From Escherichia phage UPEC01, in the sequence record MW233709: a stretch of DNA of 64,000 nt. The stretch is one strand, 5' to 3'. Position 1 is the stretch's first letter. Each line of letters opens with the position of its first letter. Positions 5,643 to 12,073 of the stretch are shown here, piece by piece. Both the position numbers and the translations under genes were made by a program. A model generated the notes under the pieces. It saw only the letters and a list, made by a program, of their open reading frames with translations. It was not told the origin of the DNA and did no database searches.

Positions 5643-6146
5643 ATGAAAAAGTTAGCTATCGCAGCTGTTATGCTGCTATCTGGTTGTGCTTACCAGGGTG
5701 ATGTTGTTAATGCCAACGAGATTGGTAAAGCGCGAATTGCTGCAGACCGTCAGGTGCATAATGGTTCCTTTGATTTCAAAGGTGGTACTGGACTTATCTA
5801 CAAACGCGACAACAATCAATGTGGAAACAACTGCGCGAAATATGCTCAACAAGAAATTGAGTACAAACGCGAGCAAGCTGCGAAGCATGACGAAATCATT
5901 GCCAAGCTGGAAGCAGAAACCAAGCGACAAAATGACCTGGACACTGTTAACCAGATTTCACAGGTCTGCATGTCATACATCAATATGCAGATAAACATCA
6001 TGCGCGCAGAAGCTTATCAGGCAGCGGAGATGGGTTCTCCAAAAGCTAATGAGTACCGCGATATGTATCAGCGTTCTGCTCAAAACCGTCTGAGCTATAT
6101 TAATAAATGTGTAGCTAAAGAGAAAGCACGCCAAGGTATTAACTGA
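5643..6146 (+). CDS. putative lipoprotein
   Basis: Signal peptide with lipobox LLSGC (MKKLAIAAVMLLSGCAYQ), 167 aa. Confidence 0.6.
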   Translation: MKKLAIAAVMLLSGCAYQGDVVNANEIGKARIAADRQVHNGSFDFKGGTGLIYKRDNNQCGNNCAKYAQQEIEYKREQAAKHDEIIAKLEAETKRQNDLDTVNQISQVCMSYINMQINIMRAEAYQAAEMGSPKANEYRDMYQRSAQNRLSYINKCVAKEKARQGIN

Positions 6147-6253
6147 TGTTATTATTACTTCTGATTGTTGTAACAGTAATTGGTTTGCTGCTATTAGAAA
6201 AGCGTAATAAGCATTTGGCTGAAGAAAACTGGAAATGTGGTAACGTTTACTGA
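6146..6253 (+). CDS. small membrane protein (35 aa)
   Basis: ATGA overlap with lipoprotein stop; MLLLLLIVVTVIGLLLLEKRNK... Confidence 0.3.
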   Translation: MLLLLLIVVTVIGLLLLEKRNKHLAEENWKCGNVY

Positions 6254-6337
6254 GTTAATTGCTCTAAAAATACAGTGATATAATTATCCTATCTTAAACC
6301 TGTGAGAAAAATATAATGGTGCCTATGGAAAAAATGA

Positions 6338-7516
6338 ATGTCTATTGCAGATTTGAAATCCCGTTTGATTAAAGCTTCTACATCCAAAATGACTGCGACT
6401 CTTACCAAGTCCAAGTTCTTTAATGATAAAGATGTAGTTCGTACAAAAATCCCGATGCTGAACATTGCAATCAGCGGTGCACTAGATGGTGGTATGCAGT
6501 CAGGTTTGACTATTTTTGCTGGTCCGTCAAAACACTTTAAATCCAATATGGGTTTAACGATGGTCTCTGCATATATGAACAAATACCCCGATGCAATCTG
6601 TTTGTTCTATGATTCAGAATTTGGTATCACAGAAGCATATCTTCGTGCAATGAAAGTTGACCCGGAACGTGTTATCCATACACCAATCCAGTCGGTTGAA
6701 CAATTGAAAGTTGATATGGTTAACCAGCTTGAAGCAATTGAGCGTGGTGAAAAAGTCATTATCTTTATTGACTCAATCGGTAACATGGCGTCGAAAAAAG
6801 AAACAGAAGATGCGATGAACGAAAAAGTTGTTGGTGATATGACTCGCGCTAAATCCCTGAAATCTCTGTTCCGTATTGTTACCCCATATTTTAGTATCAA
6901 GGATATTCCTTGTGTCGCGGTTAACCATACAATTGAGACGATTGAGATGTACAGCAAAACCGTTATGACCGGTGGCACAGGTGTTATGTATTCCGCAGAC
7001 ACCGTATTCATTATCGGCAAACGCCAGATTAAAGAAACTGGTAAAGAACTTGAAGGCTTCCAATTTGTTCTGAACGCCGAAAAATCTCGTATGGTCAAAG
7101 AGAAAAGTAAATTCTTCATTGATGTAAAATTCGATGGGGGTATTGACCCGTATTCTGGCCTGCTTGATATGGCAATGGAAATCGGATTTGTGGTGAAACC
7201 AAAAGTTGGTTGGTATAACCGTGAATATCTTGATGTTGAGACCGGCGAAATGGTCCGCGAAGAAAAATCATGGCGCGCAAAAGATACTAACTGCACCGAA
7301 TTCTGGGGTCCGCTGTTCAAGCACGAACCTTTCCGTGATGCAATTAAACGCCATTACCAACTGGGTGCAATCGATAGCAATGCTGTTGTTGATGCTGAAG
7401 TTGATGCGCTTATTGCCTCCAAGGTTGAAAAATACTCTGCTCCTGAAGGTAAGACAAAACCGTCCGCTGCAGATATCGAAAACGATTTAGATATGATGGA
7501 AGACCTTGATGAATGA
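6338..7516 (+). CDS. uvsX: recombinase UvsX (RecA-like)
   Basis: 392 aa, very high similarity to T4 UvsX (FAGPSKHFKSN Walker A, KDTNCTEFWGPLFKH). Confidence 0.97.
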   Translation: MSIADLKSRLIKASTSKMTATLTKSKFFNDKDVVRTKIPMLNIAISGALDGGMQSGLTIFAGPSKHFKSNMGLTMVSAYMNKYPDAICLFYDSEFGITEAYLRAMKVDPERVIHTPIQSVEQLKVDMVNQLEAIERGEKVIIFIDSIGNMASKKETEDAMNEKVVGDMTRAKSLKSLFRIVTPYFSIKDIPCVAVNHTIETIEMYSKTVMTGGTGVMYSADTVFIIGKRQIKETGKELEGFQFVLNAEKSRMVKEKSKFFIDVKFDGGIDPYSGLLDMAMEIGFVVKPKVGWYNREYLDVETGEMVREEKSWRAKDTNCTEFWGPLFKHEPFRDAIKRHYQLGAIDSNAVVDAEVDALIASKVEKYSAPEGKTKPSAADIENDLDMMEDLDE

Positions 7517-9295: not shown

Positions 9296-9300
9296 TTAGA

Positions 9301-9334
9301 GGTTTACAACACCATAAAAAGGGTGTACTATTAT
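9301..9334 (+). promoter_or_regulatory. early-type promoter
   Basis: GGTTTACAAC ... TATTAT followed by conserved leader CATCAACTACTGATGAGGATAATAAAATG. Confidence 0.5.
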
Positions 9335-9362
9335 CCCATCAACTACTGATGAGGATAATAAA

Positions 9363-9611
9363 ATGTTATTAGTTAATGTGCAGTACCAGTTCAAATCTGA
9401 AGAAGCTCTCCAAAAGTATGCTGATATTTGTGAGCATAATAAAAGAACAGCTGCCATTGTTGGTCTGAAGCCTTTTAAAATTTTGGATTGCTCCTTGAAC
9501 AGAGCAAGACGCTGGTGTAGTGTTGCCTGTCATGCTTCAGTTGAAGGGAATGATTATTTTTTCATTACTTTCAATGCACAAGATTTTCATTTAATTAATG
9601 AATTAAAATAG
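9363..9611 (+). CDS. hypothetical protein (82 aa)
   Basis: ORF with GAGGA RBS in conserved leader. Confidence 0.55.
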   Translation: MLLVNVQYQFKSEEALQKYADICEHNKRTAAIVGLKPFKILDCSLNRARRWCSVACHASVEGNDYFFITFNAQDFHLINELK

Positions 9612-9640
9612 TGTACAAGCCCCTTGTCTTAGGACATAAT
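9611..9640 (+). promoter_or_regulatory. early-type promoter
   Basis: GTGTACAA-N16-CATAAT followed by conserved leader GATTCCATACTGAGTTAC. Confidence 0.5.
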
Positions 9641-9689
9641 GATTCCATACTGAGTTACACAATAAACCAACTGTTAAAAGGAAAACCAT

Positions 9690-9992
9690 ATGTTTAATCA
9701 AACCGATATGAACCGTTACTATTTTGGTCAGTTCGCTCGCCGTGATGAAAACTGTGCTGCTCTTATCGCATCAGGCATTCAAACTGGTAAATTAATAAAG
9801 CTCAAAAGCGATGTTCAACCTTCATCTGTTCGCAGCTCTCTTCGTGAGTATCTGCTTGCAGGCGGGGCAGTATATGTTATCGCTGAACCTTTTGTTAACG
9901 TGTGCGACGATTACACAATTAGTGTGACTGTTATGCACCCAACTACTGGGAAAATTCGTTGTCTGACTATGCACAACTATGAGTTGGCGTAA
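9690..9992 (+). CDS. hypothetical protein (100 aa)
   Basis: ORF with AGGAAAA RBS. Confidence 0.55.
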   Translation: MFNQTDMNRYYFGQFARRDENCAALIASGIQTGKLIKLKSDVQPSSVRSSLREYLLAGGAVYVIAEPFVNVCDDYTISVTVMHPTTGKIRCLTMHNYELA

Positions 9993-10000
9993 GTGAATAA

Positions 10001-10021
10001 AGGGGCTTACAGCCCCTTTTT
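10001..10021 (+). terminator. intrinsic terminator hairpin
   Basis: aggggcttacagcccctttt. Confidence 0.6.
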
Positions 10022-10060
10022 CTTATGTTATAATGACTCTATCAACTACTGGAGAATAAA

Positions 10061-10378
10061 ATGAAAACCATTGATTGCAAGGCAGAATACAAAGTTTATT
10101 ATCATGGGTCAAGTTCTAATGCTGGAATCCAAAATATGCTTTGTCCTCCTGATGCAACTGGTGTTCTGTCAGAAGTTGGGCGTAAGAAAAATTTAGGGCG
10201 TGTGTTTTTTACTGAAGATATTGGTTTGGCGCGTATCTATGCAGGAAGAGCAGCTCGCTCATATGGAGGAGAACCCCGTCTTTATCGTGTGATTGCACCT
10301 GTTGACGTGGTTTGTTTAAATGATACTAAAGGCGCAACAGTTTATCACGCTGACTGGGCCTTCTGTGAGGAAATCTAA
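10061..10378 (+). CDS. hypothetical protein with HGS-like motif (candidate mini ADP-ribosyltransferase)
   Basis: 105 aa; KVYYHGSSSNAG resembles the H-G-S/T NAD-binding motif of H-Y-E class ARTs; assignment is speculative. Confidence 0.5.
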   Translation: MKTIDCKAEYKVYYHGSSSNAGIQNMLCPPDATGVLSEVGRKKNLGRVFFTEDIGLARIYAGRAARSYGGEPRLYRVIAPVDVVCLNDTKGATVYHADWAFCEEI

Positions 10379-10582
10379 ATGTATAAATTAGAGAACGTAG
10401 TATTTATTGGTTGGTTTGAAAATGGTAATATGTTTACCAAAGAAACCGCGCTGGATGTCAGTGACAAAAATATGATTGAATGGGTTACAGTGCAGTATGC
10501 GGAAGTGAATAATGCGCTGGTTAAAGCCTTTGTTAATGACAATAAAGTTTTTGAATATGATGCCCGCATTGAGGAAATCTAA
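10379..10582 (+). CDS. dmd: Dmd-like small protein (candidate antitoxin against RnlA/LsoA-type toxins)
   Basis: 67 aa, position between 41 and 61 as T4 dmd; GWF...MFTKE...YAEVN..ALVKAF recalled as Dmd-like; not database verified. Confidence 0.45.
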   Translation: MYKLENVVFIGWFENGNMFTKETALDVSDKNMIEWVTVQYAEVNNALVKAFVNDNKVFEYDARIEEI

Positions 10583-10924
10583 ATGACTTTTAATCCAGAA
10601 GACCGCGTAAAAGTAACAATCAAAGTGAGTGCCGTTGGCGTTCCATCTTTTGAGCGCTCAAGTATGTTCCATCCCGCAGGTATTCACTGGTATGTTCAGA
10701 AGACTGCTGATAACTATAATGCGCTGGTTGAAGCTTTTGTTGATGACAAGCTAATTCATAAAGTAGACATGCGTAAGGGTACTGCATTGCGTAATCTGAT
10801 TTTGACCGTTGAAGCGCAACTGGTAAATGAAGAAATCTGCCTTACTGATATTGAAGCAGCTCTTCATATTGCACGTGCTGAATATTACAAATTGACTGGT
10901 TTTTCAGTTGAAGGTGAAAAATAA
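10583..10924 (+). CDS. hypothetical protein, tandem paralog of the Dmd-like protein
   Basis: 113 aa; shares YNALVEAFVDDK/NNALVKAFVNDNK segment with preceding ORF. Confidence 0.55.
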   Translation: MTFNPEDRVKVTIKVSAVGVPSFERSSMFHPAGIHWYVQKTADNYNALVEAFVDDKLIHKVDMRKGTALRNLILTVEAQLVNEEICLTDIEAALHIARAEYYKLTGFSVEGEK

Positions 10925-10925
10925 G

Positions 10926-10956
10926 TGTACATCAAAGGGGTAATGCAGTATATTAT
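10926..10956 (+). promoter_or_regulatory. early-type promoter
   Basis: GTGTACA ... TATATTAT then leader CCTATCAACTACTGAGGAG. Confidence 0.45.
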
Positions 10957-10982
10957 CCCTATCAACTACTGAGGAGATTGAA

Positions 10983-11276
10983 ATGAAAAAGTTATTAATC
11001 GCAGCAATTCTTACCGTAGCATCATGTGGTACAGCCCCAGTTACTGCTGGGCTTGATAAAGACCTTTGTGAGTGGTCCATGACTGCGGACCAGACTGATG
11101 TTGAACACCAGATTTATGCTGACATCATGAACATTACTAAACGTGACCACCCAGATATGGTTAAAGAAGTATCTGACCAACTGGCTTCTGGTGACGTTAT
11201 GCAGTATAACTATGTTCTGTATTGCGATGCTTCATTTGACAACAGCAAGATTGTTCAATGGGTTACAGGTGAATAA
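10983..11276 (+). CDS. secreted/lipoprotein, spackle (Sp)-like by position and size
   Basis: 97 aa with signal peptide MKKLLIAAILTVASCG; T4 sp sits between dmd and 61 and is 97 aa. Confidence 0.45.
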   Translation: MKKLLIAAILTVASCGTAPVTAGLDKDLCEWSMTADQTDVEHQIYADIMNITKRDHPDMVKEVSDQLASGDVMQYNYVLYCDASFDNSKIVQWVTGE

Positions 11277-11277
11277 A

Positions 11278-11718
11278 ATGATTAACAGAAATTTAGTTAT
11301 CAAAAAACTTCGTTGTAAAAATCAAAATGCACAAGCATACAGGATGTTTTGGAGCGACGAACCCATTCAATACCTGGGTTATTTTCTTGTTGATAGTGAT
11401 AATAGAATTACGTTTGCTCATAAACTTCTTAACAAAGAATTAAACCATTGGCAAGAACTTATTGCGGTCAAGTCTAAATTATTTTCGCGCAATACAATGC
11501 ACCAATTGGTTTATTTTTTCGCTGACGGTATTCCTGACAAGGTTGAGTTTGATGGGTTTGAATTTAAAGACATCACCCCTGATAATGAATTGAATGACAG
11601 TATTGTTAATATGGGTATCCCGGGTAAGTACATCAAAAACAGTCTTTTGAAACTTCTGGAAACCCCTGTATATTCAGTTGACGACCAGATTTTTAATGCC
11701 TTCATGAAGCGAGATTAG
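11278..11718 (+). CDS. hypothetical protein (146 aa)
   Basis: Start ATG 11278 (MINRNLVIKK) chosen over track start 11143, which overlaps previous gene in another frame. Confidence 0.5.
   Translation: MINRNLVIKKLRCKNQNAQAYRMFWSDEPIQYLGYFLVDSDNRITFAHKLLNKELNHWQELIAVKSKLFSRNTMHQLVYFFADGIPDKVEFDGFEFKDITPDNELNDSIVNMGIPGKYIKNSLLKLLETPVYSVDDQIFNAFMKRD
11677..11713 (+). repeat. 37-bp direct repeat copy 1 (encodes VDDQIFNAFMKR tail)
   Basis: gttgacgaccagatttttaatgccttcatgaagcgag, identical to 12032-12068. Confidence 0.9.
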
Positions 11719-11719
11719 T

Positions 11720-12073
11720 ATGAGTTATTATAATTTTCTGAATTTTGAACTGGCGAGCAATAATGATGGTAATGCTCATTATGAATTTCGTGAGCCACGG
11801 TTTAATCAAGCGATTGGTTATATTATCGTCAAAGATGATGTTATCATAAAGGCTCGCTCATTTATGGTAATGAATGGACCTTATGAAGATACTCGCGGCT
11901 ATCCATTTGATAAAAAGAATGTGCGCGATTGTGCAGCATGGATAACCGGAAACCCCGAAATTGGGGTCATGATATCTACTGAAGCGAATGACATTCTGGA
12001 AGGGGCTTGGGTCAAAGCTCAAGAACAGTCTGTTGACGACCAGATTTTTAATGCCTTCATGAAGCGAGGTTAA
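11720..12073 (+). CDS. hypothetical protein (117 aa)
   Basis: ORF; C-terminal 13 aa identical to that of the preceding ORF. Confidence 0.5.
   Translation: MSYYNFLNFELASNNDGNAHYEFREPRFNQAIGYIIVKDDVIIKARSFMVMNGPYEDTRGYPFDKKNVRDCAAWITGNPEIGVMISTEANDILEGAWVKAQEQSVDDQIFNAFMKRG
12032..12068 (+). repeat. 37-bp direct repeat copy 2
   Basis: identical to 11677-11713. Confidence 0.9.

Follow-up and report, generated by a model that had tools for sequence, protein, structure and literature searches.

The open reading frame at positions 10061–10378 of the window (the whole stretch of 64,000 nucleotides of Escherichia phage DNA that was analysed) encodes a protein of 105 residues that we regard, with high confidence, as an ADP-ribosyltransferase (ART)-fold homologue of Arr, an enzyme that modifies rifampicin, and that very probably ranks, as a distant relative of Arr, among the smallest NAD-dependent ADP-ribosyltransferases known. 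The best explanation of the data is a self-sufficient ADP-ribosyltransferase domain of approximately 100 residues, belonging to an Arr/Tpt1-like branch of minimal ARTs, which would be transcribed from an early promoter, made together with the dmd product and used as a host-takeover or counter-defence effector; taken as a whole, this account appears reasonably probable.

Phage ARTs such as Alt, ModA/B and AcrIF11 are central to host takeover and immune evasion. The present family, conserved at 60–100% identity, has members in more than 600 sequenced phages of the T4-like group, which infect Escherichia, Klebsiella, Acinetobacter, Aeromonas and Vibrio and some of which are of therapeutic interest. 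It represents the ART fold pared down to approximately 95 core residues and devoid of a catalytic acid; identifying the target of the protein could uncover a weak point of the host or a counter-defence chemistry not seen so far. The identification as an ART is not new, having been made in a comparative-genomics paper of 2022 (PMC9503650, matched to the present family by description) and in several GenBank annotations: proteins of Acinetobacter phages and of Pantoea phage Phynn are named ‘putative ADP-ribosyl transferase’, that of Klebsiella phage KLB25 ‘rifampin ADP-ribosyl transferase’, and homologues 70–73% identical to the protein carry independent annotations as ‘ADP-ribosyl transferase’. 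Literature searches returned no experimental characterization of any family member. What is added here is the confirmation by structure prediction and profile comparison, the placement of the protein in the Arr-like branch, its distinction from both Arr and Tpt1 orthologues, and the recognition that the linkage with dmd is lineage-specific.

The gene and its local signals

The window is a T4-like (Tevenvirinae) segment, to which Escherichia virus TH41 is 99.6% identical over positions 9300–11300, with VR20 and SP18 (Gaprivervirus) also close. The local gene order is uvsX, 40, 41, goF, an ORF of 100 codons, the ART gene, dmd, an ORF of 113 codons encoding a Dmd-like protein, sp, two ORFs with an AdfA-like tail, and 61 (table 1). 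The 105-residue product, including the stretches KVYYHGSSSNAG, VFFTEDIGLARIYAG and GGEPRLYRV, is the exact translation of the ORF, as the initial annotation had it. That the ORF is a genuine gene, and not a chance one, is established by the Shine-Dalgarno sequence and the promoter match that precede it, by a dN/dS ratio of 0.10–0.11 against the Mosigvirus and RB16 orthologues (dS being saturated at greater divergence), by an end-to-end match to phrog_2110 (E = 1e-58, PHROG), by homologues of 96–110 residues in 115 protein clusters and by the presence of the gene in 609 phage records as detected by tblastn (Escherichia, 215; Klebsiella, 116; Acinetobacter, 68; Aeromonas, 62; also Vibrio and others).

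The promoter match agrees with the consensus at 10/12 positions, is the best sigma70-like match of the region and presumably works as an early promoter. The ART gene and dmd are probably carried on one transcript, and the promoter-like site together with the shared transcription unit suggests early expression of both.

Table 1. Features of the ART gene and of its surroundings (positions in the window).
Feature	Positions	Strand	Remarks
goF	9363..9611		
100-aa ORF (phrog_17014)	9690..9992	+	between goF and the ART gene, 5' of the terminator
Terminator-like hairpin	9999..10019	+	AAAGGGGCTTACAGCCCCTTT followed by a T run; 9 pairs, 5 GC; closes the upstream unit (goF, 100-aa ORF)
Match to sigma70-type (T4 early-type) promoter	10006..10034	+	CTTACA-17 nt-TATAAT, extended -10 TG; overlaps the hairpin
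Shine-Dalgarno GGAG	10051..10054	+	6 nt 5' of the ATG
CDS, 105-aa minimal ART-fold protein (phrog_2110; Arr-like module)	10061..10378	+	
Codons of H15-G16-S17, strand-1 H-G-[ST] motif	10103..10111	+	invariant in the family; aligned to Arr HGT (H19, Arr-ms)
Codons of the E38-V-G-R41-K-K-N44 loop	10172..10192	+	nearly invariant, basic; aligned to Arr E-x-G-R; low model confidence
Codons of F49-x-T51 (strand 2) to Y60-A61-G-R63 (helix)	10205..10249	+	F-X10-Y pair; F49 aligned to Arr-ms catalytic-site Y49
dmd	10379..10582	+	directly after the ART stop (TAA-ATG); antitoxin against RnlA/LsoA
113-aa ORF (phrog_23762)	10583..10924	+	between dmd and sp
ORF, phrog_8539	11143..11718	+	
ORF, phrog_4122	11720..12073	+	

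Fold, signature residues and relation to Arr and Tpt1

The initial annotation had proposed, on the strength of the HGS signature, that the protein is an ART, a proposal that a different fold would have undermined. The AlphaFold2 model built from the family alignment (pLDDT, 84.8; pTM, 0.77) comprises six strands and two helices, and the split beta-sheet of the ART fold, with its six core strands and helices, is present in it; the only disordered part is the loop of residues 38–41, where E38 to R41 fall below a pLDDT of 50. Foldseek comparison of the model with the PDB placed Arr first (probability, 0.98; TM, 0.52) and three Tpt1/KptA entries next, with weak E-values (0.04), while the third match of a fold search in BFVD was a phage protein of 94 residues that shares 34% identity (E = 2.7e-7) and bears the name ‘Rifampin ADP-ribosyl transferase’. 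Thus, the predicted fold sustains the proposal.

The sequence of the protein alone gave no match in Pfam, NCBIfam, PADLOC or the PDB sequences, so that the link to Arr has to be drawn through profiles or intermediate sequences. For this comparison an Arr-3 sequence, which agreed at 100% identity with genes annotated as arr-3, was used, and 112 Arr proteins were gathered. With hhalign, a narrow alignment of T4-like members gave 38% against the single Arr-3 sequence, and the profile of the broad family gave 96.6% probability against the Arr profile (E = 5.4e-10, 75 columns), pairing H15-G-S with the HGT motif of Arr, E38-x-G-R41 with its E-x-G-R and F49 with its active-site Tyr. In addition, the Pfam Arr-ms model (PF12120; gathering score, 25 bits) is matched within the shared module by 28 of the 54 multidomain relatives, several of them above the gathering score and with a best E-value of 1.8e-9; the matches of distant relatives, at 27–31 bits, cover only positions 1–67 of the 99 of the model. 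Two T4-like members reach E = 0.08 with the same model, and the protein of the window gives no match. Homology with Arr is therefore established by the profile–profile match and by the Arr-ms matches of the multidomain relatives.

Arr (PF12120, NF033144; PDB 2HW2/9IAF) is an H-Y-D enzyme (H19, Y49, D84) in which the HGT motif has a role in NAD binding, D84 lies within a DPN[VL] motif and is 100% conserved, and the rifampicin cleft is walled by two helices (PMC6092378; PMC8120803 for the triad and the cleft). The NAD-binding HGT and the strand aromatic (H19 and Y49) have their counterparts in H15-G16-S17 and F49 of the phage protein, which is however shorter by approximately 35–45 residues. The Tyr of Arr is replaced by an invariant Phe in the T4-like members, the DPN motif is found in 111 of 112 Arr proteins as opposed to 2 of 136 members of the phage family, and the hhalign alignment stops just before it. 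Residue 84 of the phage protein corresponds to residue 89 of Arr-3, leaving unmatched approximately 40 C-terminal residues of Arr, including the helix (alpha2) of the rifampicin cleft. Moreover, the relatives score approximately 25 bits with the NCBIfam Arr equivalog model NF033144, as compared with its cutoff of 130 bits, and the protein itself does not match it. From the lack of DPN, the missing C-terminal portion and the low equivalog scores, the phage family is, as judged from the alignments, Arr-like and no Arr orthologue. While Arr is the product of a resistance gene, the phage family is encoded by a gene of lytic phages and by a module of polyvalent proteins. That the protein is nevertheless a true Arr-type enzyme, inactivating a rifamycin-like inhibitor of RNA polymerase, another diffusible antiphage compound or an immune signal, is highly improbable for the same reasons, namely the near absence of the catalytic DPN[VL] (D84), the end of the chain before the rifampicin-cleft helix and the scores far below the equivalog cutoff; furthermore, there would seem to be no obvious ecological ground for a rifamycin resistance shared by coliphages and by Aeromonas and Acinetobacter phages.

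An alternative is a Tpt1/KptA-like enzyme acting on RNA ends, which would transfer ADP-ribose onto a 2'- or 5'-phosphate and serve either the repair of RNA or the capping or marking of its ends in the conflict with the host over mRNA decay. The third signature position is non-acidic in both families, and Tpt1 (an H-H-h ART) is active without a catalytic acid (PMC8120803). However, the N-terminal winged-helix RNA lobe of Tpt1, which carries three of the four residues of the catalytic R-H-R-R tetrad (PMC8120803), is wholly missing from the phage protein, a single domain in which about 12 residues precede HGS and in which the tetrad is absent; at the second signature position, Phe takes the place of the His of Tpt1; and no significant sequence match to the C-terminal NAD lobe of Tpt1 was found, the sequence being nearer to Arr. 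The pI of 7.65 is not strongly basic, and the gene neighbourhoods are variable. Thus, judging by the missing RNA lobe and by the Phe in place of His, the protein is no Tpt1, and a Tpt1/KptA-like function is unlikely.

Conservation was evaluated in 37 diverse T4-like members and in the 99 relatives with complete domains that could be aligned among the 244 further ones retrieved by a profile search of 1.84 billion representatives. Invariant in all 37 T4-like members are H15, G16, P30, E38, R41, N44, L45, F49, T51, D53, L56, A57, Y60, A61, R63, G70, G91 and A92. The 99 distant representatives retain [FY]-Y-H-G-[TS], L-P-P, T33, E38-x-G-R-K-K-N-L, V-F-F-T and A57, as well as I-Y-A-G-R-A, G-G, P72, P79 and G91. 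HG[ST] is kept in 37/37 T4-like and 99/99 distant sequences (136/136 for the family), which takes the motif far beyond a chance tripeptide and disposes of the concern, expressed with the initial annotation, that it may not be conserved among homologues. The [FY]-X10-Y pair is found in 114 of the 136 members and E-x-G-R in 120. At position 49, aligned to Y49 of Arr, Tyr occurs in only 2/99 distant members, so that the aromatic ring is kept and the hydroxyl lost.

No conserved acid is found at the third signature position among the 37 T4-like or the 99 distant members. The residue initially put forward as the catalytic acid, E71 of GGEPRLYRV, is variable in both alignments and cannot be maintained in that role. 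D88 is present in 26% of the distant members and E103 is conserved in the T4-like branch only; both were rejected as the catalytic acid, neither being conserved across the broad family. A Glu at position 84 is found in 53% of the distant members and is absent from the protein of the window, and position 93, T/S in the family, is Glu in 18%. Since H-H-h ARTs are active and also lack the acid, its absence is no bar to membership of the ART superfamily. Of the initial reading as an H-Y-E enzyme of the diphtheria toxin/PARP type, the ART assignment thus stands and the class does not: with an invariant F49, the F49-X10-Y60 pair and a third position lacking a conserved acid, the affinity suggested by the H15/F49-X10-Y60 signature is with the Arr/Tpt1-like minimal ARTs and not with the classical H-Y-E toxins or PARPs.

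Other phage ARTs have other signatures. AcrIF11, a phage anti-CRISPR ART of 132 residues (PDB 6KYF) with N250 of Cas8f as its known target, is of the H-H-D type with D115 as the catalytic acid, and by this description differs from the present protein with its lack of a conserved acid. Alt, ModA and ModB of T4, the ARTs of T4-like phages that act in early host takeover, belong to the R-S-E clade and are much larger; their signature is unrelated to that of the protein, and none of them ranked high when the fold was searched.

The module in other proteins and the proposed reaction

Among the 99 representatives with complete domains, the module stands alone in 45, and is C-terminal in 28, internal in 19 and N-terminal in 7. 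It is hosted, for instance, by a tape-measure-type protein of 3,924 residues and by a lambda-type portal fused to the Arr-like module and a 2H/Acb1-like phosphoesterase, and in proteins of 1,955 to 3,735 residues it adjoins a separate ART-PolyVal domain, with a NUDIX domain directly after it in one case. Other domains of the module-bearing proteins are LPD23, ddrB-ParB, Toprim, GNAT, CHAP and DUF7178. The recurrence of a self-contained unit of approximately 100 residues in these multidomain proteins shows that 105 residues are a sufficient and complete unit, which answers the reservation, voiced when the protein was first singled out, that it may be too short for an ART fold.

Polyvalent proteins were interpreted by Iyer et al. 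as multi-effector polypeptides that are injected with the DNA (PMC5512222); that work covers the H-Y-D ART-PolyVal domain, without a second, Arr-like one. ART-PolyVal (PF18760) is, like the present protein, an ART with His as the first signature residue and is found in the same giant injected proteins of phages and conjugative elements, but it is an H-Y-D domain of approximately 140 residues, separate from the Arr-like module. Among the 37 T4-like members its model gave a single sub-threshold match (E = 0.25), and in three proteins (P0128, P0131 and P0148) the two domains adjoin each other within one polypeptide, so that ART-PolyVal and the Arr-like module are distinct families.

The embedding of the module in injected polyvalent proteins argues for a catalytic effector that would act early in infection. 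As each giant polyvalent protein contains one copy of it, an enzyme is favoured over a stoichiometric binder. The opposite possibility is that of a catalytically dead ART fold, serving as a sponge or decoy for NAD+ or an ADP-ribose signal, or as a stoichiometric inhibitor of a host protein. It would agree with the lack of a conserved catalytic acid, because of which the protein could indeed be a weak enzyme or a mere binder, and with the observation that the invariant residues are of NAD-binding types only. Besides the single copy, however, the activity of the acid-less Tpt1 (PMC8120803) and the strict conservation of H, F and Y as in active enzymes speak against a dead fold, which appears improbable. 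We regard the protein as probably catalytically active.

We infer that the protein uses NAD+, that it is catalytic, what kind of acceptor it modifies, that it is expressed early and that it acts against the host; these points can be combined in the following scheme. The NAD+-binding cleft would be made up of strand 1 (H15-G16-S17) and the F49…Y60 aromatic pair, which corresponds to the Y-X10-Y of diphtheria toxin and PARP. If Arr, diphtheria toxin and PARP are a guide, the NAD ribose and the carboxamide would be contacted by H15-G16-S17, and the nicotinamide would be sandwiched by F49 and Y60. The E38-x-G-R41-K-K-N44 loop, for which binding of the NAD phosphate or of the substrate is envisaged, would hold, together with R63, the pyrophosphate and/or an anionic acceptor. 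After expulsion of nicotinamide, one ADP-ribose would be transferred to the host target (mono-ADP-ribosylation). The acceptor would more likely be a non-protein nucleophile (an RNA or DNA end or a small molecule), with a protein side chain, modified through substrate-assisted catalysis, as the other option. The former is favoured because no Glu/Asp is conserved and because the nearest relatives modify a small-molecule hydroxyl (Arr) or an RNA phosphate (Tpt1); RNA/DNA or a small molecule is thus slightly favoured over protein as the target. The enzyme would be provided as a solo early protein in T4-like phages, and delivered within injected polyvalent, portal or tape-measure proteins in other phages. 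A more general proposal, which we consider possible but doubtful, is that the module represents a widespread class of acid-less minimal ARTs acting on a non-protein acceptor (a terminal phosphate of RNA or DNA, or a small molecule, for example a nucleotide immune signal) and would be a counter-defence or takeover tool of the first minutes of infection.

In five of the fusion proteins (P0151, P0148, P0128, P0131 and P0130), the module is in tandem with ART-PolyVal, is followed by NUDIX or lies between the portal and the 2H/Acb1-like phosphoesterase, and these recurrent fusions suggest a coupling to the processing of ADP-ribose or of nucleotide signals. A divergent solo homologue of 136 residues is encoded at positions 6001–6411 of a jumbo-phage-like metagenomic contig (L007), which also encodes a protein with a cREC domain and a fused RNA polymerase beta/beta' of 2,556 residues that carries a LAGLIDADG insert; the solo form is therefore not confined to T4-like phages.

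The dmd neighbourhood

The gene 3' of the ART gene, initially described as that of a Dmd-like antitoxin, encodes an authentic Dmd, which scores 74 bits against Pfam PF17587. Dmd is an established inhibitor of host RnlA/LsoA. Iyer, Burroughs, Anantharaman & Aravind (2022) predicted a pair formed by a ‘p0068-family ART’ and Dmd in Escherichia, Shigella and Salmonella phages, placed p0068 in the H-Y-[EDQ] clade and interpreted the pair as a toxin–antitoxin system (PMC9503650). That pair fits the present locus, by its description alone; yet the family studied here lacks a conserved acid and its linkage to Dmd is lineage-specific.

According to this published proposal, the ART would be the toxin and the adjoining Dmd the antitoxin of a phage-borne type II pair. 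The contiguity of the two genes is in its favour, the ART stop abutting the dmd start in the window and overlapping it by 4 nt in Mosigvirus NBG1, as is the finding of the same order in Gaprivervirus SP18 and in many Escherichia/Shigella phage records. However, ART genes whose products are 60–73% identical to that of the window lack a Dmd-like neighbour in RB16, Klebsiella Slopekvirus (KLB25), Aeromonas phiAS4 and Acinetobacter Konradin; in T4, gene 41 is immediately followed by dmd, the ART gene being absent from this interval; and the Arr-like module is fused into injected polyvalent proteins without Dmd. The gene content of the 41–61 interval also differs among T4, NBG1, SP18 and the window, so that insertion there can produce a chance adjacency. 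A role of Dmd as obligatory partner of the ART was rejected on the neighbourhoods in these four other lineages and in T4. As the lineage-specific linkage argues against a toxin–antitoxin pair, a reading we hold to be quite unlikely, the two genes are interpreted as neighbours, in some lineages only, in a region of changing content that is occupied by small accessory genes of the early class. The suggested early expression and the variable content of the 41–61 interval jointly point to the preferred host-takeover or counter-defence role.

The ART gene of RB16 and that of Klebsiella Slopekvirus are flanked by the gene for a protein of 290–300 residues and by an ORF of 55–58 codons (phrog_7619), near srd/HNH and RNA ligase 2. 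In Aeromonas phiAS4 it is located between capsid-related genes, and phrog_7668 and an HD phosphohydrolase follow; in Acinetobacter Konradin, ORFs of 45 and 40 codons come after it. No likeness to Dmd was detected in the ORFs 3' of the ART gene in RB16, Slopekvirus, phiAS4 or Konradin. Thus, the neighbourhoods vary by lineage and offer no consistent pointer to the target of the ART.

Related proteins of 250–300 residues (phrog_7439/7204) are encoded directly 5' of the mini-ART gene in RB16, Klebsiella Slopekvirus and Aeromonas phiAS4 (L001, 1567–2472; L004, 1593–2462; L003, 1683–2441, respectively), and may be accessory partners of the ART in these lineages. Their role as a universal partner was rejected, as they are found in 203 of the approximately 609 ART-carrying records and have no homologue in the window.

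Some of the surrounding ORFs deserve mention in their own right. The one between goF and the ART gene (phrog_17014) is also found in SP18, has no T4 counterpart and gave no match in Pfam or NCBIfam. In the product of the ORF that follows dmd (phrog_23762), residues ~30–65 resemble the C-terminal half of Dmd (E = 1.7e-3 with Pfam, 9e-6 with the PHROG Dmd family), and the protein may be a paralogue of Dmd, or a fusion, that differs in toxin specificity. The ORF is absent from SP18, where sp directly follows dmd, and its absence probably explains the 82% coverage of the segment by several near-identical phages. Finally, the products of the two ORFs belonging to phrog_8539 and phrog_4122 end with the same stretch of approximately 16 residues, SVDDQIFNAFMKR[DG], a match to the very C-terminal end of the AdfA family of Pfam (anti-DarT factor A, T4 gene 61.2); at the position of 61.2, they look like two otherwise different proteins that share a C-terminal module.
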